The notes under the pieces: generated by a model
What the model was told of the DNA's origin: nothing
The model's input: the letters and a program-made list of their open reading frames with translations, nothing else
The model's database searches: none
Program-made: the position numbers and the translations under genes
Assembly: GCA_023229945.1 (NCBI GenBank)
Contig: JALNYH010000002.1
Location: forward strand, 21,548-85,547
Length of the DNA stretch: 64,000 nucleotides
From: Arcobacteraceae bacterium
Lineage (GTDB): Bacteria; Campylobacterota; Campylobacteria; Campylobacterales; Arcobacteraceae
Direction: 5' to 3'
Part shown: positions 11,008 through 62,715 of the stretch, piece by piece
How positions within the stretch are numbered: the stretch's first letter is position 1
How the letters are laid out: the number at the start of each line of letters is the position of its first letter

Positions 11008-12660
11008 ATGAAATTATCAAGATTTTTAAGCGTAGCAGCAATTGCTTGCATAGGTTTTGTTGGTACGGCTCAAGCAGAGGTTAAATTATCAGTTGCAGAA
11101 ATGGAACATGCTACACAAATTTATTTCGATAGATGTGCAGGATGCCATGGTATGCTTAGAAAAGGGGCTTTAGGACCTGCACTAACACCTGAAAAACTTA
11201 AAGAAAAAGGTTATGATTCAGCATCACTGAAACATATTATTCATGAAGGTACACCTGGTGGTATGCCAGAGTGGGGAAAATCTGGAGAGATTACAGCTGC
11301 TGAGACTGATTTGATGGCTAAATATATCCAGCTTCCAGCACCTCAACCACCTGAAAAATCTCTAAAAGATATGAAAGATACACACAAAGTATTGATACCT
11401 GTAAAAGATAGACCAAAAGCTCCTGAAATGAAAAACTGGAAAGACTATTTTGCAGTAATTTTAAGAGATGTTGGGCAAATTGCTATTATTGATGGTGTTA
11501 CTAAAGATATAATGTCTGTTGTTCCATCAGGTTATGCAACACACATTACTAGAACTGGTGCATCTGGAAGATATATGTATGTAATTGGTAGAGATGGTAA
11601 AGCATCTGTTATCGACCTTTGGATGAAAGAGCCAAAGAATGTTGCTGAAATTAGAGTTTGTAACGATGCAAGAGCTATTGATACATCAAAACACAAAGAT
11701 TTCCTAGATAAATATGCGGTTGTTGGTTGTTATTGGCCACCATCTATTGTAACACTAGAAGCTGAAACACTAGAACCTCTCAAAATCGTATCAACTGCAA
11801 GTTATACTTGGGATACTGGTGAATATACAAGAGAAGCAAGAGTTGCAGCTATTATAGCATCACACGACAAACCTGAGTGGGTTATCAATATCAAAGAAAC
11901 TGGACAAGTTTGGCTATATGATTATTCAAATATTATGAATCCAAAAATTACAATGGTTAATGCTGAAAGATTCTTGCATGATGGTGGTTGGGATTTATCA
12001 AAAAGATATTTCATGACTGCAGCTAATTCAAGACATATTATTTCTGTTATTGATACAAAAGAGGGAAAACTAGTTGCTAATATCCCATCTCAAGGGAATA
12101 TTCCACATCCAGGAAGAGGTGTGAATGTAGACCATCCTAAATTTGGTCCAGTTTGGGGAACAGGTCATATTGGCTCTGCTGATATAGTGTTCATTGGAAC
12201 TGACCCAAAAAATCATCCAAAAAATGCGTGGAAAGTTGTTAAAAAAATCAAACTTCCAGGTGATGGCGGAGGAAATCTATTTATCAAAGGTCATCCAAAT
12301 TCAAAATATATATTTGTTGATAGACCAGTGAATCCAGATAGAGAGCTACAAACTCAAATTTATGTAATCGATAGAGATACACTAGAGTTTGTAAAAACTA
12401 TCAAAATAGATCCAAAATACCTAGAACCAGCAAAAACTGCTGATGGTAAAGAGATTCAAGCAAGAGGACCAGTGCATTTTGAATTTAATGCTGATGGTTC
12501 AGAAGTTTGGACAAGTATTTGGGGTAATAAGCTTAAAGCATCTCCTATTTTAATTTATGATACAAAAACATTAGAACTTAAAAAAGTAATTAATGACGAA
12601 AGACTTAAAACACCAACTGGTAAATTTAATGTAACCAACACAATGACGGATACTTATTAA
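11008..12660 (+). CDS. nirS: cytochrome cd1 nitrite reductase NirS
   Basis: 550 aa. Signal peptide, CAGCH heme c domain, long d1 beta-propeller domain. AGGAG RBS. Confidence 0.92.
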   Translation: MKLSRFLSVAAIACIGFVGTAQAEVKLSVAEMEHATQIYFDRCAGCHGMLRKGALGPALTPEKLKEKGYDSASLKHIIHEGTPGGMPEWGKSGEITAAETDLMAKYIQLPAPQPPEKSLKDMKDTHKVLIPVKDRPKAPEMKNWKDYFAVILRDVGQIAIIDGVTKDIMSVVPSGYATHITRTGASGRYMYVIGRDGKASVIDLWMKEPKNVAEIRVCNDARAIDTSKHKDFLDKYAVVGCYWPPSIVTLEAETLEPLKIVSTASYTWDTGEYTREARVAAIIASHDKPEWVINIKETGQVWLYDYSNIMNPKITMVNAERFLHDGGWDLSKRYFMTAANSRHIISVIDTKEGKLVANIPSQGNIPHPGRGVNVDHPKFGPVWGTGHIGSADIVFIGTDPKNHPKNAWKVVKKIKLPGDGGGNLFIKGHPNSKYIFVDRPVNPDRELQTQIYVIDRDTLEFVKTIKIDPKYLEPAKTADGKEIQARGPVHFEFNADGSEVWTSIWGNKLKASPILIYDTKTLELKKVINDERLKTPTGKFNVTNTMTDTY

Positions 12661-39872: not shown

Positions 39873-42071
39873 ATGTTTAAAAATTTTTATATTAAGACTA
39901 AGTTACTTATTCTTTTTATTATCCCATTGTTGGCTGTCTTAATTCTTCTTGTGGTTAAGTTTATAGAATTAAACCAAAGCCTTTCCAATGCAACCAAAGC
40001 AGCTTCTATTGAAGAGATTAGAGGAATTGGTGACATCATACACAATTTACAAGTTGAAAGAGGCTTAAGTGCTAGATATATAGCTTCAAATGGAACAAAT
40101 TTTAAAGATGTATTGCAAGAACAAAGAACTCTATCAGCGAGTTCTATCAATAAGTTAATAAATTTCCAAACACAACAAAACAATATCATAGCTTCTCAAA
40201 TTGTTAAAGATTTAGACACAAAAAGAAATCTTATAGATACATTATCATATAATTTAAATCAAAGTGGCAGTTACTATAGTGATATGATATCTCAACTTCT
40301 AAATTACTATCGAACCATTTTACTAAAATCAAAATTACCACAAATTAAAAATGATTTACTAGCTCACTATTGGCTTTTACTAGCAAAAGAAAACTTTGGT
40401 CAATTAAGAGCAAATTTAGCAATAACTTTTCGACAAAAATATTTTTCTGATGATATATTACAAAAATCTAGTGCTAATCAAGCTACTATAATACTTGGCT
40501 TTCAAAACTTTGAATCAGATGCAAATATCGATATTGTCAATTATTTCAAAAAAACTTTTCAAGGAGAAAGTGTAGATACTACAAACAATATGATTCAAAT
40601 TGCTTTTGAAAAGCAAAAAGATGATTGTGGGAATATTGAACCATCTTTATGGTTTGACACAGCCACAAAAAGTATTGATATTCTAAAAAATATTGAAGAT
40701 TATAGTATAGCACATATAGAATCAACTATGAAAAAAACAATCTCTTCTATTTATTTTGAGATTATGAAAGACTTAATCATCAGCTTGGTTCTAATCATTG
40801 TAGTAATATTTTTATATCTTCAAATCTCAAAAGATATTCTTACATCTTTAGAGTCATTTAAAAATGGGTTATCACTATTTTTTGATTTCTTAAATAAAAA
40901 ATCAAATAATGCCAACAGTATTGATATAAATAATAAAGATGAATTTGGTCAAATGGCTAAATTAATAAATGAAAATATAGAAAAAACTCAAGTCATGATT
41001 TCACTAGATAATGAAGTAATAGCTGATGCAAAAAATGTTGTTGCAAGGGTAAATAATGGATGGTATAGCCAATGTATTGAAGCAACAACTACAAATGAAT
41101 CACTAGAACAATTTAAAGAAAGTGTTAATGAAATGATAGTAAATACAAAAAATAGATTTTTAGATGTAAATAATATCTTAAATCTCTATACAAAACATGA
41201 CTACACAAAAACTCTTCACCTAAAGCCTACAGATGAAAAAGGTGGGGTTTTAGAATCATTAATTTTAGGTGTTAACTCTTTACAAAATTCTATTACACAG
41301 ATGCTTATCCAAAACCAAACAAATGGAACTACACTTGATAAAAGCTCAAATATTTTACTTCAAAATGTAAATACCCTAAGTCATAGTGCAAATTCCGCTG
41401 CAGCTGCATTAGAAGAAACTGCTGCGGCACTTGAAGAAATTACTGCCACAGTTGTCAGTAATTCATCAAATATTCTTCAAATGTCACAATATTCAAAAGA
41501 AGTTATAAACTCAGCAAAAAAAGGGCAAGAATTAGCCAAAAACACATCAACAGCTATGGATGAAATAACAACTCAAGTTCATACTATAAATGAAGCTATA
41601 GCTGTAATCGATCAAATATCATTTCAAACAAATATTCTATCCTTAAACGCTGCAGTTGAAGCAGCAACTGCTGGAGAAGCTGGAAAAGGATTTGCAGTAG
41701 TTGCTGCAGAAGTGCGAAACCTAGCATCAAGAAGTGCTGAAGCTGCCAAGGAGATAAAGTATATTGTAGAGATAGCTACATCCAAAGCCAATTTAGGTAA
41801 ATCAATAAGTAGTGAAATGATAAAAGGATATGATGAACTTTTGCAAAATATTGATAAAACTACAGCAACAATTTCAGAAATTGCAAATGCTTCCAAAGAA
41901 CAAGAAGCTGGTATTACACAAATAAATGATGCAGTAACTGGACTTGATCGCCAAACTCAAGAAAATGCCTCCATAGCATCTCAAACACATGATATTGCAA
42001 TACAAACTGACAATATTGCAAAAGCAATAGTATCTGATGTCATAAATAAGCAATTTATTGGCAAAAGTTGA
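39873..42071 (+). CDS. methyl-accepting chemotaxis protein with a NIT-like (nitrate/nitrite-sensing) periplasmic domain
   Basis: 732 aa. TM1, large helical sensor with IIHNLQVERGLSARYIASNG (NIT-like motif), TM2, HAMP, conserved MCP signalling hairpin ([34 protein letters not shown]). Confidence 0.8.
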   Translation: MFKNFYIKTKLLILFIIPLLAVLILLVVKFIELNQSLSNATKAASIEEIRGIGDIIHNLQVERGLSARYIASNGTNFKDVLQEQRTLSASSINKLINFQTQQNNIIASQIVKDLDTKRNLIDTLSYNLNQSGSYYSDMISQLLNYYRTILLKSKLPQIKNDLLAHYWLLLAKENFGQLRANLAITFRQKYFSDDILQKSSANQATIILGFQNFESDANIDIVNYFKKTFQGESVDTTNNMIQIAFEKQKDDCGNIEPSLWFDTATKSIDILKNIEDYSIAHIESTMKKTISSIYFEIMKDLIISLVLIIVVIFLYLQISKDILTSLESFKNGLSLFFDFLNKKSNNANSIDINNKDEFGQMAKLINENIEKTQVMISLDNEVIADAKNVVARVNNGWYSQCIEATTTNESLEQFKESVNEMIVNTKNRFLDVNNILNLYTKHDYTKTLHLKPTDEKGGVLESLILGVNSLQNSITQMLIQNQTNGTTLDKSSNILLQNVNTLSHSANSAAAALEETAAALEEITATVVSNSSNILQMSQYSKEVINSAKKGQELAKNTSTAMDEITTQVHTINEAIAVIDQISFQTNILSLNAAVEAATAGEAGKGFAVVAAEVRNLASRSAEAAKEIKYIVEIATSKANLGKSISSEMIKGYDELLQNIDKTTATISEIANASKEQEAGITQINDAVTGLDRQTQENASIASQTHDIAIQTDNIAKAIVSDVINKQFIGKS

Positions 42072-46144: not shown

Positions 46145-46855
46145 TTAAAAGTTTCTATATTCTATTTTAAATTTATCTGTATGCAATTTCTTTAGGTCAA
46201 TATAAGATAGTTTTTTTGTTAGATTACCAAAGTTTTCTTTGGATTCAAGGAAGTTTTGTAGATAATAAGTACCATTGTAATCTATATTTTCAAGAGTTTT
46301 TATCATCATTTGTATATCATAAGTATCCAATAAATCTGGATGAATTGTAGAGCGTATCTCAAAGTTAACACCACTTTTTACGAGCATGATTACTGAATTG
46401 ATAAAAAACTCAAAATATTTTGATGGGTTTTTTGTCACAAGTTCAAATTTATCTTTTGGTGCTTTGAAATCAACCGCCACAAAATCCAAAAGACCCATAT
46501 CCAAAAGCTCTTGCAAACTTTCATGATGCACACCATTTGTATCAAGTTTTACCATAAATCCCATATTTTTGACTTTTACAATAAAACTAAGCATTGCATT
46601 ATCATAGCCAAATAAAGGCTCTCCACCACAAAGAACTACCCCTTGAAGTAGCCCTTTGCGAGTCTCTAAAAACTCAAGAACCTCATCATAGCTATAATTT
46701 CCACTTCCAGTTACAATCTCAGTATTATAACAATACCCACACCTCATCCCACATCCACATATCCATACAATACATGCTACATGTGATGGAAAGTCCAGCA
46801 ATGTAAATGGCGTAATATTATAAACTTGCTTCTTTTTGACAATATGTTTGTTCAT
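46145..46855 (-). CDS. nrdG: anaerobic ribonucleotide reductase activase NrdG (radical SAM)
   Basis: Start moved to MNKHIVKKK (ATG 46855). CGCGMRCGYCYN cluster motif. Confidence 0.8.
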   Translation of the reverse strand: MNKHIVKKKQVYNITPFTLLDFPSHVACIVWICGCGMRCGYCYNTEIVTGSGNYSYDEVLEFLETRKGLLQGVVLCGGEPLFGYDNAMLSFIVKVKNMGFMVKLDTNGVHHESLQELLDMGLLDFVAVDFKAPKDKFELVTKNPSKYFEFFINSVIMLVKSGVNFEIRSTIHPDLLDTYDIQMMIKTLENIDYNGTYYLQNFLESKENFGNLTKKLSYIDLKKLHTDKFKIEYRNF

Positions 46856-46997
46856 GAAAATATGTTCTTTGTCTATGCTCACCAATTTTTCCTATATTAA
46901 AGCTTTCCACTGGTCTATGATACCCCATAACTCTAGTATAAACCATACATTTCGTTCTTTTTTCTTTGTTTTGCTCTAAAACTTCATTTTTACTCAT
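46818..46997 (-). CDS. stand-alone NrdD glycyl-radical domain (59 aa)
   Basis: Hand-translated MSKNEVLEQNKEKRTKCMVYTRVMGYHRPVESFNIGKIGEHRQRTYFHEQTYCQKEASL. It carries the class III RNR C-terminal pattern (V)Y(S/T)R(V)xGY..PV..(W/F)N.GK..E...R. AAGGAG sits 6 nt upstream. Same frame as nrdD. Confidence 0.65.
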   Translation of the reverse strand: MSKNEVLEQNKEKRTKCMVYTRVMGYHRPVESFNIGKIGEHRQRTYFHEQTYCQKEASL

Positions 46998-47012
46998 TTT
47001 TTACTCCTTTTC

Positions 47013-47136
47013 TTTAGTTTTTAGTTTGTAGAGGGTAGAGAAGATAATGAAGAAATAATTTTCCGTTACCACCTACCACCTACCACCTACCACCTACCAC
47101 CTACCACCTACCACCTACCACCTACCACCTACCACC
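47013..47136. repeat. heptad-repeat hairpin element, copy 1: conserved 54-nt core + (TACCACC)x10
   Basis: tttagtttttagtttgtagagggtagagaagataatgaagaaataattttccg, then ten exact TACCACC units (47067..47136). Homologous to 60822..60931. Confidence 0.85.
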
Positions 47137-49217
47137 TAAGCACCTAAAATCTCCTCATCACACTTCGGACAATACTCATGCTCACCACTTATATACCCAT
47201 GCACTGGACACACACTAAAAAGTGGAGTGATAGTCACATAAGGAAGTCTGAAATTTGTAATAACAGATTTCAAAAACTCCCTACAGCTATCACCACTTTC
47301 TAGTTTTTCATTCATATAAAGGTGAAGTACAGTTCCCCCTGTATATTTGCACTGCAAATCATCTTGATGAAGAAGTGCAGCAAATGGATCAGCAGAAAAA
47401 TCCACTTGAAGTTGAGATGAGTTGGTATAATATATATTTTCCCCCATTCCAGCTTGCAAAATATCTGGATATCTTTTGATATCTTCTTTTGCAAAACGAT
47501 AAGTAGTTCCTTCAGCTGGTGTTGCTTCAAGATTATACAAGTTTCCAGTTTGTTCTTGATAGCTAGTCATTAGCTCTCGTATAAAGTCCAAAATCTCCAA
47601 AGAGAGTTGTTTCCCAAATTCACTAGCAATATCATGCTTATCACTTGTAAAATTTCTCACCATTTCATTAAGCCCATTTACTCCAATAGTAGAGAAGTGA
47701 TTATTGAAGTTTTTTAGATACCTTTTCGTATATGGATAAAGTCCTCTATCAAACATTGTATTGACAAAAACTCTTTTCTTTTCCAAAGTCTCTTGAGCAA
47801 TATCGCAAAGTTCCTTGACTCTTAGCAACAGCTTCTTTTTATCCCCACTATAAAGATACCCAAGTCTTGCCATATTAAGTGTCACCACACCAATACTTCC
47901 AGTCATCTCAGCACTCCCAAAAAGCCCACCACCTCGCTTTAGAAGCTCTCTCAAATCAAGCTGAAGCCTACAACACATACTTCTTACATGACCTGGTTTA
48001 TAAGCATTTGGATTTTCACAAAGATTTCCAAATTCATCTTTTGTATATTGACTACCTATAAAGTTTTGGAAATAACTAGAACCTATTTTTGCACTATTTT
48101 CAAACAACACATCAGTATTTTCACCATACCAATCAAAATCTTCTGTGATATTTACCGTAGGAATCGGGAAAGTAAAAGGTTGTCCATTTTGGTCACCTTC
48201 TGTCATCACCTCATAATATGCTTTATTGATTAGATTCATCTCTTTTTGAAAATATTTATAAGTCATATCACTTAGATTTGATACCCCTCTAGCTCTTGCT
48301 TCTTCAATCAAATCATCATCGCTCACACCACTTAATAAATGTCTTTGATTTTTAGTAGGAATTTGGTCTTTTAGGTCACTTGGTACAGTCCAATCAATTG
48401 TCACATTTGTAAAAGGACTCTGACCCCAACGAGCAGGAACATTTAGATTATAAATAAAACTCCGAACTGCCTTTTTGACATCATTATATTCAAGCTTATC
48501 TTTGAAAACATAAGGAGCTAGATATGTATCAAAAGAGCTAAAAGCCTGAGCTCCAGCCCATTCACTTTGAAGTATCCCCAAAAAGTTTGCCATCTGACCA
48601 AGAGCCTCCCTAAAATGGCTCGGAGCTGAGCTTTCAACCCTACCTCTTATACCATTGAACCCCTCATCAAGAAGCACTCTCAAACTCCACCCAGCACAAT
48701 ATCCTGTTAGACAATCAAGGTCATGTATATGAATATCCCCATTTCTATGGGCGTATCCTTGAGTTTTGGTGTATATTTTATCAAGCCAATAGTTTGCTAT
48801 TAGTTTTCCAGCTAGATTATTGACAAGCCCAGCATTAGAATATCCAGTATTTGCATTGGCATTTATTCTCCAATCAGATTTGTTTATATATTCTTCTATA
48901 GAGCTTGTAGAGTTTACATAAGTAGTATCTTCATTAAGCCCCAAGATATGTTCTCTTTGCATCTTATGCAAGAATCTATATGTGATAAAAGATTTTGCCA
49001 CATCAAAATATTTAGCTTCAAAAAGTCTTTTTTCGATTGTATCTTGTATCTCTTCTACAGTTTGAAGATTGTTTTTTTCAATATCACCCATAACTTGTTT
49101 GAATATTTGTCCATCATATCTTGATATCACACTATCAAATGCCTTTTTTATAGCATCTTCTATCTTGAAAGCACGAAATTCTTCTTTACTTCCATCTCTT
49201 TTAAATATAAATTGCAT
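47136..49217 (-). CDS. nrdD: anaerobic ribonucleoside-triphosphate reductase NrdD, large fragment lacking the glycyl-radical domain
   Basis: Start at MQFIFKRDG (ATG 49217, GAGGG RBS). ATP-cone, class III RNR core, ends just after the Zn-ribbon CPVHGYISGEHEYCPKC. The stop TAG is formed at the edge of the heptad repeat. Confidence 0.85.
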   Translation of the reverse strand: MQFIFKRDGSKEEFRAFKIEDAIKKAFDSVISRYDGQIFKQVMGDIEKNNLQTVEEIQDTIEKRLFEAKYFDVAKSFITYRFLHKMQREHILGLNEDTTYVNSTSSIEEYINKSDWRINANANTGYSNAGLVNNLAGKLIANYWLDKIYTKTQGYAHRNGDIHIHDLDCLTGYCAGWSLRVLLDEGFNGIRGRVESSAPSHFREALGQMANFLGILQSEWAGAQAFSSFDTYLAPYVFKDKLEYNDVKKAVRSFIYNLNVPARWGQSPFTNVTIDWTVPSDLKDQIPTKNQRHLLSGVSDDDLIEEARARGVSNLSDMTYKYFQKEMNLINKAYYEVMTEGDQNGQPFTFPIPTVNITEDFDWYGENTDVLFENSAKIGSSYFQNFIGSQYTKDEFGNLCENPNAYKPGHVRSMCCRLQLDLRELLKRGGGLFGSAEMTGSIGVVTLNMARLGYLYSGDKKKLLLRVKELCDIAQETLEKKRVFVNTMFDRGLYPYTKRYLKNFNNHFSTIGVNGLNEMVRNFTSDKHDIASEFGKQLSLEILDFIRELMTSYQEQTGNLYNLEATPAEGTTYRFAKEDIKRYPDILQAGMGENIYYTNSSQLQVDFSADPFAALLHQDDLQCKYTGGTVLHLYMNEKLESGDSCREFLKSVITNFRLPYVTITPLFSVCPVHGYISGEHEYCPKCDEEILGA

Positions 49218-49273
49218 AATCACACCCTCAAAAATCGTTTTGTGTATATTAGCAAAAAGGGAAAAGGATTGTC

Positions 49274-49295: not shown

Positions 49296-49317
49296 AGCCC
49301 AAGCTTAAACTTGGGCT
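49296..49317 (-). terminator. intrinsic terminator of the TsdA-like gene
   Basis: agcccaag / cttgggct 8-bp stem, 6-nt loop, followed on the minus strand by CTTTTGATTT. Confidence 0.65.
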
Positions 49318-56384: not shown

Positions 56385-56612
56385 ATGTTTGAAAATATGA
56401 CCCAAATAACCGTTGATGTAAGCGAAGATGAAGCACCTATTCCTTTACAAAAGGCTATTAATTCACTCTCATCTATCAATCCATCAACATATGTGAAATT
56501 CATCCATCGTATGAGACCATGTATGCTATTTGATGTATTAGACAAAGGTGGGTATTCTTATGAGATAGATGATAGTGGTGAACAATTTATAGTTTATATT
56601 TATAGGAAGTGA
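56385..56612 (+). CDS. DUF2249-like small protein
   Basis: 75 aa. DEAPIPLQKAINSL...FIHRMRPCMLFDVLDKGGY pattern. Confidence 0.6.
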   Translation: MFENMTQITVDVSEDEAPIPLQKAINSLSSINPSTYVKFIHRMRPCMLFDVLDKGGYSYEIDDSGEQFIVYIYRK

Positions 56613-56648
56613 CTGAGGTACTCATCAGCTCTAAAAAAAAGGATTCCA

Positions 56649-57860
56649 ATGAATTTTTCAGGACTTAGCCTAGACCAAGCACCGCCTATTTTCGTACCTT
56701 TTGGATTTTTTATCACAGCTTCTATTTTAGGTATTTTTGGAAGTTTTCATATCGCTTTTTTTGACTACAGCTATGTATATTTTCACTTTATCACCATAGG
56801 TTTTTTTGGTTTTGTGATGATTGGGGCTTTGTTTCAGATGTTCCCTGTTATGATTGGTATTGGGGTCAAAAAAGTACTTCCCACATTTTATATAGTCTTT
56901 TTTTCTCTACTTTTGGGACTTATTTGCTTTTACTTAGGATACACACTAGATAATCATATCTTTATGGCACTTACATCACTTTTTTTAATAAGTGGTTTTT
57001 TGAGTTTTTGTCTTGTTTTCCTATACTCTCTTTTTAGCTCATCCACTCACCACGATGCCACAAGCATTGCCATGGCAATATCACTCATCTTCCTAACCCT
57101 TGGTACACTTTTTGGAGCATATATACTAGCTCAATATTATATAATTCAAAATTCAACATTCATAATTCAACATTCACTCCACATCAACACCCTCTTCTTT
57201 GGAACAATATTCATCCTTATTATGGGTATTAGCTTCAAGATTATCCCTATGTTTTGGGTAGCCAAAGATTACCCAATTTATTGCAAAAAGTTCATACTTC
57301 CACTTATTACTTTTCTTGTAACTAGTTTTATTTTCTTACAACTTTTTGGAATAAATTTTGATGAGAATATCTATTATGCTCTATTTGCATTGCCTTTACT
57401 AGCTTTTTATTCCATTACTATAAGAAGACTCAAAGATAGAAAAAGAAGGCTCACAGACTACAGCATATATTTCTTATACACAGGACTAAGCTTAGGCTTC
57501 ATTGGGGCATTACTTCTAATTAGCAAAAACTTTATTACCATAGATTCTCATATATTTCTGACTTTATTTGGATTTGGTTGTGTTTTATCTTATATATTTG
57601 GATTATTATACAAAATAGTCCCTTTTTTGTGTTGGTTTCATCTCACATCAAAAGGCTTGTTTGATATTCCCACTATCAAAGAATTTATTGAACTAAAATA
57701 CATAAAAGCCCATTTTATCACACATATATTATTTATAGCAGTATCATTTTTTAGTATCCAACTTGCCTCATTTTTGCTTATTGTATCTTTTGCCTTACTT
57801 TTATACAATATTTCAAAAGCTTATTTGATTTATCAAGGTATTACCAAAAAACTGCTATGA
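56649..57860 (+). CDS. 12-TM membrane protein, paralogue of 42455..43672
   Basis: 403 aa. FHFITIGFFGFVMIGALFQMFPV motif aligned with its paralogue. Same position after a DUF2249-like gene. Confidence 0.5.
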   Translation: MNFSGLSLDQAPPIFVPFGFFITASILGIFGSFHIAFFDYSYVYFHFITIGFFGFVMIGALFQMFPVMIGIGVKKVLPTFYIVFFSLLLGLICFYLGYTLDNHIFMALTSLFLISGFLSFCLVFLYSLFSSSTHHDATSIAMAISLIFLTLGTLFGAYILAQYYIIQNSTFIIQHSLHINTLFFGTIFILIMGISFKIIPMFWVAKDYPIYCKKFILPLITFLVTSFIFLQLFGINFDENIYYALFALPLLAFYSITIRRLKDRKRRLTDYSIYFLYTGLSLGFIGALLLISKNFITIDSHIFLTLFGFGCVLSYIFGLLYKIVPFLCWFHLTSKGLFDIPTIKEFIELKYIKAHFITHILFIAVSFFSIQLASFLLIVSFALLLYNISKAYLIYQGITKKLL

Positions 57861-58753: not shown

Positions 58754-60826
58754 ATGAGATATAATAATACAAATTTTTTACAAAAAGATAGGGGATATTT
58801 AGTGTTAAATTCATTGACGGTAAAAGGTAAGTTACAAGTTGTAACTGCGTTGGTAGTTTTAGGTTTTGTGCTAATTGCATTGTTTAGTTATATAAGACTT
58901 AGTGCTCTAGATAAAGAATATAAAGATACAGTGGTAATAAGTGAAATAAAACAGCTTGTTAGTAATACTTTAATAAGTAATATAGAAGGGGCTTCAGCTA
59001 TTAGAATGATGATTTTAGCTCCAAATGATACACAAGCTCCGAAAACATTAGAAACAAATGTAGCTTCTGTTGAAGAAGCTATAAAAACTTTACAATCACC
59101 AAAGTATGCTAAAGCATCACAAGGGTTTACTAAGTTTAATATTGGTGAGTTACATACAAATTATGCAAATGTACTTCAATCAATTTTAATAAAAAGAGCA
59201 AAAGGTGAAGAAATTACTCCTGAAGATAATAAAAAAGTTGCAAAAAATCTTCGTCCTTACAAAGCAGCCCTAAATGAATGGTTAAAAGCAAATGATACAA
59301 AACAAATATCTCTTAGTGGTAAATTTGAAACTACAATAGCTTCTACTATTACTATATCTATTTTAATATCTTTGGTTATTATAATCTCAATATTTGTGAT
59401 TATATTGTTGATTGGCGGAAGTATAGTGAATTCTCTTCATACATTTAGTAATGGTTTAAAAGATTTCTTCAACTACTTAAATAAAACAACCAAAACAATA
59501 CAACTAATTCATATTGATGGTAAGGATGAGTTTAGTGTGATGGCTGATATGACAAATACAAATATCAAACATATTGAATCTCAAATCATAGAAGATGATA
59601 TGTTTGTATCTGATGTTAATAGATTTGCGAAAGAAATAGCTTCTGGAAATATGCTAGCAAAAATAGAAAAAAACACATCAACTCAAAACTTAGCAGAACT
59701 AAAAGAAATTCTTACTCAAATGCAAAAAAATTTAGAACATTCTATAGCAAGAAGTATCCCTATGCTTATAGAAATATTAGAAAGTTATACAAAACAAGAT
59801 TTTACAAAAAAATTCCCAGATGCTTATGGTAAAGTAGCCCTTAGTGTAAATTCTCTTGGTGAAAATATGTCAAAACTTCTTATGCAAAACTTACAAGATG
59901 GTATGGCACTAGATTATAGTACTGATGTTTTACTAGAAAATGTAGATGTACTAAGTCGTAGTGCAAACTCAGCTGCTGCATCTTTAGAAGAAACTGCTGC
60001 TGCATTAGAAGAAATCACAGCTACAGTTGTAAGTAATTCAAACAATGTAGCCCAAATGTCACAGTATTCAAATCAAGTAAGTAATTCAGCAAAAAAAGGA
60101 CAAGAGCAAGCTAGAAATACAACAACTGCTATGGATGAGATTACGGCTCAAGTAGCATTGATAAATGAAGCAATCACAGTAATAGACCAAATTGCATTCC
60201 AAACAAATATTCTATCCTTAAACGCTGCGGTTGAAGCTGCAACTGCTGGTGAGGCTGGAAAAGGATTTGCAGTAGTTGCTGCTGAAGTGCGAAATCTAGC
60301 ATCAAGAAGTGCTGAAGCTGCAAAAGAAATCAAAAACATAGTTGCAAATGCAACAAATAAAGCAAATGAAGGTAAATCTATAAGTAATGATATGATAAAA
60401 GGTTATGATGAGCTTTTAGGTAATATCAATAAAACTACAGCCGTTATTGCTGAAATTGCAAATGCTTCAAATGAACAACAAGCTGGTATCACCCAAATCA
60501 ATGATGCCGTAACAGGACTAGATCGTCAAACTCAAGAAAATGCGTCAATTGCATCACTTGTAAGAGAGATAGCAAGCGAAGCTGACCAATTATCAAAAAG
60601 AATGGTTGTTGATGCTTCTAGTAAAGAATTTTTTGGTAAAAACGAATTTCTAAAAGAATCAAAAAACAAAATCCCAACAAAAAATACACAAACAGTAGCT
60701 GTGAATAAATCAGTAGCAAAACCTCAAATAAAACATACCCATAATGAGAGCGTTAAACCTAAAACTCCACTAAAAACAATAACCCCAACCAAATCATCAA
60801 AAGATGACGAATGGGAGTCATTTTAG
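58754..60826 (+). CDS. methyl-accepting chemotaxis protein (helical-bundle sensor) with a C-terminal xWxxF tail
   Basis: 690 aa (start uncertain; GTG at LVLNS is possible). TM-sensor-TM-HAMP-MA. The signalling hairpin is nearly identical to the MCP at 39873. Ends DDEWESF. Confidence 0.85.
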
Positions 60827-60931
60827 TTTTTAGTTTGTAGGTGGTAGGTGGTAGAGGGTAGAGAAGATAACGAAGAAATAATTTTCCGCTACCACCTACC
60901 ACCTACCACCTACCACCTACCACCTACCACC
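60822..60931. repeat. heptad-repeat hairpin element, copy 2: core with (GTGGTAG)x2 left arm and (TACCACC)x6 right arm
   Basis: Same core as 47013..47066 (two substitutions) plus 14 extra nt in the left arm. The arms form a perfect long hairpin. Fills the entire MCP-dnaX spacer. Confidence 0.85.
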
Positions 60932-62715
60932 TACACTCTACTCTTAACAATAATCTTAGTTGGAGCAAATAGTTCTTTTGCAGTATTTACAAAACTTGAG
61001 TTTAAAATATCATTTACTTCAAGCTCTTTAGAAGCTGGTTTGGGATTGCTCGTTTGTGTCATATCTGCTACACATCCACTACCAAAAGATTCTTCTTCTA
61101 TCATAGAAGAGATATTTTCGCTATCCTCACTACACTCTTGAGGAACATTATCTACTTTTTTTTTTAGCTCTTCTTCGGTAGGTTTATAAAATTCTATTAT
61201 AGTATCATTTCCAAAACACTCTTCTACTACAGTTCTAATATAAGCAAAGTTTTTCCACAAAAGTTTTTTATCATCACCATCAGCAATACTCCAAATATTG
61301 AGTATTTTTGTCATATTATCAAAACTTTTGAATATAAAATTCTTCTCCAAACAAGTACCAAGTTCATAGCTTCTTTCAGATACTTTACTTATTACCAATT
61401 CATAAATATTAGTTTGAGGCTCTATTATTGGCTCTTCTTGGATTTGTTCTAATTGTGGCATTTCTTCCATATTTTCATGTTGGCTCATATTCATATCAAA
61501 ACTTTGAGCTTGTTCTATCTCTTCTTGTATAGGATGTTGCTGTTGAGCTACATCTATAGTAGTTGTTTTTGCTTGAGATATTGTTGGAGTAGTTGGAATT
61601 GGAGTTGGAGTTGAAGAAAGCTCATCTTGGGCTTTTGCTATCATATCACAAGTAGTTTTTTCAAGCTCATTTATAAGTGCATCAATAGTTTTTAGTTTTG
61701 TAGCTTCTACCATCTTAGAAACCATCAAAATAAGTACAAAATCACTATCACTATTAAGGGCTAGTAAATGTTTGCTATCTCCCAAAATCCTAAACATCCT
61801 ATCTATCAAAATAGTATTAAATTTATTGTTTTTGCTAAGCAATTGATTTTTGAGATATATCGCCATCTCATCTATTATCAAATCTGTTTCATAATCTTGC
61901 AATATATTTGAAATATCCAAAACCGTAGCATTTTTGAGTATCATATCAAATATATTATCCATCAAAGTAGGATCAATAAGTCCCAACATATCAGTAACAC
62001 AGCTAGTTGTGATATGCCCTTTTGAGTAAATAATAGCTTGGTCAAGCAATGTCAAAGTATCTCTCAAAGACCCATGCCCACTTCTTGCTATTAGCTCTAT
62101 CGCTTTTGGCTCATAATTTATATGTTCTATATTCAAAATATGTTCTATATGGTGAATTATATCTTTTAGTGCAATAGCTTTGAATCTAAAGTGTTGTGTA
62201 CGGCTCAGTATTGTAGCTGGTAGTTTCAAAGGATCAGTAGTAGCTAATATAAATTTTACAAAAGGTGGCGGCTCTTCTAGAGTTTTAAGAAGTGCATTAA
62301 ATGCTTGAGTTGTAAGCATATGTACCTCATCTATGATAAATACTTTGTATCTACCGCTTGATGGTTGGTATTTTGTATGCTCTATCAAATCTTTGATATC
62401 TTCAATACCACGATTACTAGCTGCATCCATCTCCACAACATCAAGATGTCTTCCACTATTAGAACTAAGACAATTTTGACACACTTCACAAGGTTTTGAA
62501 GTAGGACCTTGCTCACAAAGGAGTGACTTAGCCATAATCCGTGCAGTACTAGTCTTTCCACTTCCTCTAAGTCCACTGAAAAGATAAGCATGAGGCAATC
62601 TTTTCATATCAAGAGCCAAAGATAAAGTTTGAGAAACAGTTTGTTGTCCAACTAAATCTTCAAACCTTCTTGGTCGGTATTTAAGTGCTAATACTTTATC
62701 ACTACTATTCATCAA
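60931..62715 (-). CDS. dnaX: DNA polymerase III subunit tau/gamma DnaX
   Basis: 594 aa. GLRGSGKTS Walker A, IIDEVHML, clamp-loader domains. Confidence 0.9.
   Translation of the reverse strand: MMNSSDKVLALKYRPRRFEDLVGQQTVSQTLSLALDMKRLPHAYLFSGLRGSGKTSTARIMAKSLLCEQGPTSKPCEVCQNCLSSNSGRHLDVVEMDAASNRGIEDIKDLIEHTKYQPSSGRYKVFIIDEVHMLTTQAFNALLKTLEEPPPFVKFILATTDPLKLPATILSRTQHFRFKAIALKDIIHHIEHILNIEHINYEPKAIELIARSGHGSLRDTLTLLDQAIIYSKGHITTSCVTDMLGLIDPTLMDNIFDMILKNATVLDISNILQDYETDLIIDEMAIYLKNQLLSKNNKFNTILIDRMFRILGDSKHLLALNSDSDFVLILMVSKMVEATKLKTIDALINELEKTTCDMIAKAQDELSSTPTPIPTTPTISQAKTTTIDVAQQQHPIQEEIEQAQSFDMNMSQHENMEEMPQLEQIQEEPIIEPQTNIYELVISKVSERSYELGTCLEKNFIFKSFDNMTKILNIWSIADGDDKKLLWKNFAYIRTVVEECFGNDTIIEFYKPTEEELKKKVDNVPQECSEDSENISSMIEEESFGSGCVADMTQTSNPKPASKELEVNDILNSSFVNTAKELFAPTKIIVKSRV

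Follow-up and report, generated by a model that had tools for sequence, protein, structure and literature searches.

A 64,000-nucleotide stretch of an Arcobacteraceae genome (contig JALNYH010000002.1, positions 21,548 to 85,547; hereafter the window) carries two copies of an intergenic hairpin element built from 7-nt units. The copies are 110–128 nt long and lie at 47011-47138 (copy 1) and 60820-60934 (copy 2), both described here on the + strand. The element probably represents one family, defined by the unit TAGGTGG/CCACCTA and a 34-nt core, of intergenic hairpins that resemble the repetitive extragenic palindromic (REP) sequences and whose arms are complementary heptanucleotide microsatellites. 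It lies exactly at gene 3' ends, its polarity is fixed, and its stop codons are in phase. The arms behave as a microsatellite, gaining and losing 7-nt units rapidly and independently, with concerted evolution, and the core recurs at four or more loci. The element is genuine and not a product of chance, and two known ingredients, a REP-like hairpin and a heptamer microsatellite, make it up. The window belongs to an uncultured species of the family. It is 99.99% identical to metagenome contig ERZ27250894 k141_214084, and uncultured Arcobacteraceae and Arcobacter sp. FWKO B are its nearest named kin.

Structure and folding of the two window copies

Each copy consists of a left arm, a conserved core or loop, and a right arm. 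The left arm of copy 1 (47011..47038) is a series of NNNNTAG heptads (TTTAG, TTTTTAG, TTTGTAG, AGGGTAG), which runs into the core AGGGTAGAGAAGATAATGAAGAAATAATTTTCCG (47032..47065, followed by a T to 47066) and then into a right arm of (TACCACC)x10.3 with 100% match (47067..47138), reading (TAGGTGG)n on the - strand. In copy 2 the left arm (60820..60861) comprises ATTTTAG, TTTTTAG, TTTGTAG, GTGGTAG, GTGGTAG and AGGGTAG, the core is AGGGTAGAGAAGATAACGAAGAAATAATTTTCCG (60855..60888, followed by a C to 60889), and the right arm extends to 60934 as (TACCACC)x6 + TAC or, counted from 60889, as (CTACCAC)x6.6. The two GTGGTAG units constitute an extra left-arm array, (GTAGGTG)x2.6, at 60837-60854. The cores of the two copies differ by a single T/C. 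The 34-nt core has 2 matches in the window versus 0.00 expected, and the heptad pair TACCACCTACCACC with at most one mismatch has 15 versus 0.02 expected.

A preliminary description of this DNA had reported two copies with a common core, exact TACCACC heptads numbering 10 and 6, and (GTGGTAG)x2 in the left arm of copy 2 with none in copy 1. Both copies are present at those sites, with the core taken here as 34 nt; 10.3 and 6.6 perfect units were measured, and the difference between the left arms is borne out. The same holds for its claim that TAG stops close all three frames and face inward from both sides. Copy 1 carries four left-arm TAGs spaced 7 nt apart (47015, 47022, 47029 and 47036), stopping all three frames, and copy 2 carries six in the same 7-nt phase (60824, 60831, 60838, 60845, 60852 and 60859). 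Beyond that description, the left arm too proves to be a heptad array, of degenerate form, (NNNNTAG)n. In copy 1 the + strand has no C in the left arm and no G in the right arm. The strong heptad elements of the window all fall within 47-61 kb. Positions 1-37000 are a denitrification region without a strong heptad array, encoding a NorQ/CbbQ-like ATPase, cytochrome cd1, heme d1 biosynthesis, NosL and a nos-type ABC transporter.

The hairpin is likewise real, and the two copies differ in folding as had been proposed. Copy 2 is a long near-perfect hairpin, with a predicted energy as RNA of -50 kcal/mol on the + strand (z -6.9) and -62.7 kcal/mol on the - strand (z -8.1); copy 1 gives only a weak fold (z -1.5 and +0.2) and is essentially without a stem. 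The GTAG motif is part of the paired stem and recurs at 7-nt intervals in each arm, appearing in the 3' arm as CTAC. A search of the window against Rfam at gathering thresholds returned no match, and relaxed E-values gave only generic long-hairpin matches to eukaryotic miRNA precursors, at ≤32 bits versus cut-offs of 58-129.

Gene ends, strain variation and history

Copy 2 lies between two convergent genes, encoding a methyl-accepting chemotaxis protein (MCP; 58754..60826, + strand, ending ...DEWESF-TAG) and DnaX, the gamma/tau subunit of DNA polymerase III (60931..62715, - strand, C-terminus KSRV). The first TAG of the copy (60824-60826) is the stop codon of the MCP gene, and the CTA at 60931-60933, in the first heptad from the other side, is the TAG stop of dnaX. 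The C-terminus of DnaX is conserved among relatives as KSRV, RSRI or RSKI, and the element therefore starts right at the native dnaX stop. Copy 1 lies in the anaerobic ribonucleotide reductase operon, between two co-directional - strand genes. Upstream is the nrdD large chain (47136..49223; 693-695 aa, with ATP-cone and NRDD domains), whose TAG stop, CTA at 47136-47138 on the + strand, again falls in the first heptad. Downstream is a gene for a 59-aa NrdD glycyl-radical peptide with an RVMGY motif (46818..46997), whose AAGGAG Shine-Dalgarno (SD) sequence and ATG the left arm of the copy abuts. The G-rich strand is the sense strand here. The nrdG-like gene for a radical-SAM activase that comes next (46145-46885) starts within the peptide gene.

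A metagenome scan with the core identified two further loci, on contigs L130 and L131. The metagenome collection is evidently incomplete, as known core carriers such as the L121 contig are absent from the scan output; the four loci are a minimum. On L131 the copy follows the gamma-subunit gene of a 2-oxoacid:ferredoxin oxidoreductase (OFOR), whose TAG is the left-end TAG, and the next gene is co-directional with its own TATAAT-like box, as judged by eye. The OFOR locus also occurs on L150, a contig from the sample that gave the window contig, and this copy is therefore assigned to the same species. All four loci are intergenic, at the 3' ends of open reading frames (ORFs), between convergent or co-directional genes, and a first-unit TAG is the stop of the MCP, dnaX, nrdD-large and OFOR-gamma genes. 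The four are found in ∼110 kb of the species' sequence, two of them inside the 64-kb window. With these loci and the orthologous copies in all strains examined, the earlier suspicion that the pair belongs to a repeat family rather than being a chance pair is upheld. The core scan of viral contigs gave 0 matches and blastn against plasmids gave none. Nor is the element simply a companion of MCP genes, as the 3' end of the paralogous MCP gene at 39873-42071 is free of it. That paralogue also lacks the DEWESF C-terminus. The two MCP genes share a signalling-domain segment (41398-41439 and 59973-60014; 81% identical), each with a 21-nt tandem duplication, CTGCWGCRGCAYTAGAAGAAA.

The preliminary description had considered the heptad number unstable, and a comparison of strains and assemblies agrees. 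The right arm has 10, 7, 10, 6 and 8 heptads in the nrdD gap (range 6-10), 6, 2 (three assemblies), 13 and 1-2 in the dnaX/MCP gap (range 1-13), and 9, 9, 9, 9 and 12 in the OFOR-gamma gap (range 9-12). Left-arm units also vary in number (TTTTTAG, TTTGTAG, GTGGTAG, GTTGTAG and AGGGTAG); their TAG is constant across variants, which is suggestive only, the units having been recognised by TAG. Complementary left-arm units are missing from the nrdD copy in all five strain variants. In strain L144 the dnaX-side array (11768-11877) consists of (TAGATGG)x13 with all units homogenised, a case of concerted evolution without compensation.

Heptad tracts also occur inside a gene. An ORF of the window encoding a 403-aa membrane protein (56649-57860) contains at 57141-57176 a heptad tract that encodes a short loop. 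This tract has two alleles, YIIQNSTFIIQHSL (AATTCAA-type units) and LPSTIYDLPSSI (CCATCTA units), whose distribution is discordant with phylogeny, the window strain and the sister species sharing one and L144 and FWKO B the other. The in-gene tract of L144 (15592-15628), 4 kb from the dnaX-side array, is also built of TAGATGG, and the window strain differs at both sites. The shared unit could be a coincidence (about 1 in 21) or could reflect exchange between the arrays.

In a sister species (DnaX 69% identical) the 3' end of the MCP gene carries an orthologous hairpin of 44 nt, GTAGGTGG...CCACCTAC, with a predicted energy of -20.4 kcal/mol (z -3.1) and the layout TAG TAGGTGGTAG CGAAAGAATATTATTCTTGTCCTATG CCACCTAC CGT CTAAAAT CTAAAAC. 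The comparison shows the MCP copy to be a descendant of such a simple 44-nt hairpin; because the short orthologue exists in the sister species, this copy is old, its stem having been expanded heptad-wise in the window species. A patatin-like phospholipase gene is inserted between dnaX and the MCP gene in the sister species (L146 11800-12519 and L147 4167-4886), with the short hairpin between the patatin and MCP genes. FWKO B shows a 4-nt overlap of the dnaX and MCP stops, lacks the element, and has a different C-terminus in its MCP.

The nrdD copy has a different history. The nrdD gap of the sister species holds another array, (GGGTTAA/GGGTTCA)n, with 4, 5, 9 or 15 units depending on the assembly (L135 9899-9964, L136 9932-9968, L137 9085-9113 and L138 9861-9966), the first unit of which gives a TAA stop. 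It is a telomere-like G3N4 quadruplex motif with a 14-nt higher-order periodicity, located on the sense strand just past nrdD-large. In strain L128 a remnant of the older array, GGTAAGGGTTAGG, is kept before the TAGGTGG units. Because the sister array differs and L128 retains this remnant, the nrdD copy seems to have entered an older array secondarily. In FWKO B (L132 9942-10001) the gap between the large and small nrdD genes is heptad-free, but it contains a short GC hairpin, CCCAGATGACTCTGGG, and some structure thus appears to recur in this gap. In the OFOR gap of a related species (gamma subunit 95% identical) a (TGAGTTC/TGAGTAC) hairpin is found instead, with equal gap length. Homology picks up on both flanks, with no duplication, indicating a site that is replaced rather than empty.

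The wider class of heptad-armed hairpins

Heptad-armed hairpins are a general feature of these genomes, in several unit families. An 18-nt palindrome of the window, TGATGAGTAC/CTCAGTCA (56610..56627, - strand), is replaced in a strain 97-99% identical (L121 3583-3690) by a hairpin that is 65 nt longer and has arms of (TGAGTWC)n and (CTCAGTA)n, from which it follows that both arms expand or contract in place. Other unit families are ATTAGTT/TAACTAN, after the gene at L131 6799-7542, CGTGAAT/ACTCACG, at three loci, and CTCAGTG, on L153. Among periods 4-12 tested, perfect tandem arrays were found with period 7 only. Intergenic arrays flanking an ORF 3' end begin 5-13 nt inside the ORF, and so span the stop codon. 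The unit as read inward contains a stop in 7/7 unit families (null 0.495, p = 0.007), and its outward complement does so in 2/7.

A scan of genome contigs with (TACCACC)x3 gave at least 120 matches in many phyla, yielding 118 usable arrays, with no Campylobacterota among the matches listed. At least three TAGs in 7-nt phase, marking the complementary arm, occur within 130 nt upstream in 14 of the 118 listed arrays and downstream in 0. As the polarity of a palindrome is unchanged on the other strand, this 14:0 polarity must reflect inward reading from the flanking genes. The 14 listed hairpins (L022 1600-1700, L033 3670-3760, L014, L037, L004, L029, L043, L046, L051, L060, L062, L067, L073 and L087) come from metagenome-assembled genomes of Acidobacteriota, Gemmatimonadota, Saccharibacteria, Cyanobacteria and Gammaproteobacteria. 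The four that were folded (L022, L033, L014 and L037) are hairpins with z from -4.4 to -7.9. Some of the 14 carry a GC-rich apical hairpin, and one has a T-run after it. That one, L033 from Saccharibacteria, is close to the window element, reading TTTTTAG TAAGTAG AAAGTAG TTTGTAG GTTGTAG AATTTCC (TACCACC)4 TTTTTTT. Long open frames end at the TAGs of the cross-phylum arms, a noisy test in GC-rich DNA. No description of heptad-armed hairpins was found in the literature on Arcobacter and Campylobacterota, the set consulted being incomplete; the wider pattern to which the element belongs is apparently undescribed.

Growth, possible role and alternative explanations

The arms would lengthen through slipped-strand mispairing of TAG...TAG direct repeats at 7-nt spacing, and template switching within the quasi-palindrome may help to expand the stems. 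A change of ±7 nt in an array at the end of an ORF would spare the protein a frameshift, and so be harmless, only if the unit carries a stop, and such a tolerance filter would lead to the invariant TAG phase and the fixed polarity. Heptamers, the commonest long-unit class of simple sequence repeats (SSRs), have been ascribed to polymerase slippage (Mrazek 2007, cited in PMC4679880). The arms resemble the heptanucleotide SSRs, such as the cyanobacterial STRR, TAACTGA and GGGNATC repeats, in being intergenic 7-nt arrays close to stop or start codons, with strong length polymorphism among close relatives (PMC4679880, PMC4692102). They differ from these mainly one-armed arrays of a single genome-wide unit in that two complementary arrays flank a conserved core to form a hairpin, many unit families coexist, and the stop phase and the 5'-G-rich/3'-C-rich polarity are fixed.

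With regard to function, we infer a role in Rho-dependent 3'-end formation, drawn from few loci, in which a translation-insulated hairpin is combined with a Rho-loading tract. As RNA, the module would free ribosomes in all frames before presenting a hairpin without a U-tract; the G-free, C-rich tract past the hairpin would load Rho, and the stem-loop would protect the 3' end, in both directions. Rho binds ribosome-free RNA that is C-rich and G-poor over 70-80 nt (PMC6407284), and Rho-dependent 3' ends bear stem-loops without U-tracts (Dar & Sorek 2018, cited in PMC13613805). By sequence, the element resembles Rho-dependent terminators in its stop codon, its U-tract-less stem-loop and its G-poor, C-rich 50-75-nt tract with regularly spaced C (PMC6407284, PMC13613805), and differs in that the stem takes up part of the C-rich tract, two or three heptad units being paired in copy 2. 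The arms supply the three strongest C>G 60-nt windows of the 64 kb (35C/0G, 31C/0G and 23C/1G), with + strand runs free of G over 74 nt (54% C) and 70 nt (46% C) and a - strand run over 51 nt (35% C), so that by composition the tract past the stop is a candidate ribosome-free, C-rich, G-poor segment of ∼60-80 nt. Natural rut sites are not known to consist of perfect heptad repeats. A Rho gene is encoded in the window. The orientation at the four loci fits a Rho-dependent role: the sense strand is C-rich at L130 and L131, both kinds of strand are sense at the convergent MCP/dnaX pair, and the G-rich strand alone is sense only within the nrdD operon, where this orientation and the near-absence of a stem would permit read-through.

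Several observations weigh against this interpretation. The CGTGAAT and TGAGTTC units are not G-free, and the Rho-loading idea is therefore not extendable to the whole class. Cyanobacteria, which are generally reported to lack Rho, carry some of the cross-phylum hairpins. The switch to TAGATGG in L144 took place without a compensating change in the opposite arm and copy 1 is essentially stemless, so pairing is not obviously maintained. Finally, the proposed scenario does not account for the spread of the same core to four loci.

Alternatively, the element may have no function and be a neutral by-product of polymerase slippage on gene-end palindromes, tolerated solely because stop-containing units do no harm, which we regard as a lesser but real possibility. 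Copy number and unit type change freely, pairing has been lost with no compensating change, the orthologous gaps of related species hold different heptad hairpins, and heptamer SSRs are common in bacteria with no demonstrated function (PMC4692102, PMC4679880). However, the 34-nt core is kept at all four loci and from strain to strain in spite of the turnover in the arms, the 14:0 polarity and the invariance of TAG need at least a selective filter, and the stemless copy is consistently the operon-internal one.

The preliminary description also considered a mobile element resembling a miniature inverted-repeat transposable element (MITE) or a REP. In its fuller form this reading has a non-autonomous MITE, REP or REPIN that a transposase from another part of the genome, such as a REP-associated tyrosine transposase (RAYT) working on GTAG-tagged hairpins, would carry to fresh sites close to gene ends. 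The near-identical core and the outer left-arm units TTTAGTTTGTAG recur at four unrelated loci, the sister species has another array in place of the nrdD copy, with L128 keeping GGTAAGGGTTAGG beside its TAGGTGG units, and GTAG occurs in every G-rich unit, GTAG REPs having been proposed as RAYT substrates (PMC3733652). Like the GTAG-type REP, BIME (bacterial interspersed mosaic element) and REPIN sequences, the element is a dispersed intergenic stem-loop repeat near ORF 3' ends of convergent or unidirectional genes; GTAG REPs, thought to act as RNA hairpins, lie ≤20 bp from ORF 3' ends and their TAG is often the stop of the flanking gene (PMC3733652). Mobility is nevertheless unlikely and the proposal was not sustained. 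At the four loci there is no target-site duplication and no sharp end, the arms fading into the flanks; the OFOR site of the related species holds another heptad hairpin of equal length and is not empty; and the MCP copy is inherited vertically from a short hairpin, arguing against recent insertion there. REPs are 20-40 bp with a fixed stem and one unpaired GTAG tag, whereas the window copies are 110-128 nt, against 44 nt for the sister-species orthologue, their arms are hypervariable, and GTAG is paired and iterated in the stem. No Y1 transposase or RAYT was found in the window (including a Pfam scan of 30 ORFs at 1-37 kb) or in ∼200 kb of related loci, and the family numbers four loci so far; among these loci L128 alone has a transposase gene, of the IS110 type. 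Small palindromic MITEs (Correia/NEMIS, RUP, ERIC and RPE) are likewise ∼100-150-nt inverted repeats at or in gene ends that can supply stops or regulatory signals, but they have defined terminal inverted repeats and target-site duplications, neither of which is seen here.

A G-quadruplex role for the G-rich arm, in DNA or in mRNA immediately past the stop and in the manner of the GGGNATC repeats of Xanthomonas and Nostoc, is improbable. The repeat (GGTGGTA)n gives runs of GG tracts, the sister species has its textbook G3N4 array on the sense strand at the same nrdD position, and G-rich heptamers ≤50 bp from stop codons on the sense strand have been described (Rehm et al.; PMC4692102). However, the window element has two-G tracts only, the C-rich strand is the sense strand at two of the four loci, and in copy 2 the complementary arm would compete by duplex formation.

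Still less probable is that convergent genes share the element as an intrinsic (Rho-independent) terminator working in both directions, although copy 2 is very stable and lies exactly between the MCP gene and dnaX, and seven T in a row come after the similar Saccharibacteria hairpin L033. Neither arm of the window copies is followed by a T-run or U-tract on either strand, the T-rich stretch being 5' of the stem, and a terminator scan of the window picked up neither copy while a canonical terminator exists nearby at 49296-49317. Copy 1, almost stemless, lies between co-transcribed parts of nrdD. The bidirectional termination envisaged in the preliminary description is thus unlikely to be of the intrinsic type.

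Finally, the notion that copy 1 is an intervening sequence in nrdD (a translational bypass, mini-intron or disruptive insertion), suggested by its position between the large NrdD ORF and the 59-aa ORF with the glycyl-radical motif, is refuted by the SD and ATG that the small ORF has of its own, by the same split in relatives without the element, and by the commonness of standalone 49-81-aa glycyl-radical peptides (1792 matches, the best 120 all short). Those best 120 of 1792 include peptides from Arcobacteraceae, Campylobacter, Sulfurovum and Flavobacterium. As a speculation, the split may make the oxygen-sensitive radical domain of the anaerobic ribonucleotide reductase replaceable, comparable to GrcA/YfiD as a spare part for pyruvate formate-lyase.

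Returning to the heptad-armed hairpin as a REP-like element with microsatellite arms, a broader proposal is that stop-phased heptad hairpins are tunable gene-end modules across phyla (Campylobacterota, Acidobacteriota, Gemmatimonadota, Saccharibacteria, Cyanobacteria and Gammaproteobacteria), in which the 5' arm would release ribosomes in all frames, the hairpin would protect the 3' end, the G-free, C-rich 3' arm would load Rho or, in lineages lacking it, another factor, all of this in both directions, and gain and loss of 7-nt units would set the strength. We consider this generalisation rather doubtful. Were it true, termination and antisense insulation would be a rapidly evolving, possibly phase-variable trait.

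Heptamer repeats are the commonest long-unit microsatellites of bacteria and REPs are among their commonest intergenic repeats, and the function and origin of both are debated. The element described here joins a REP-like hairpin to a heptamer-microsatellite stem, with a fixed stop phase and with a polarity, also fixed, that is seen again in distant phyla, and its natural alleles, with 1-13 units at one site, are usable as an allelic series. If the hairpin and the C-rich tract set 3' ends, repeat slippage would be a simple means of tuning termination and antisense insulation; if they do not, the element would be a clean example of how a tolerance filter, the stop within the unit, shapes which microsatellites live at gene ends.

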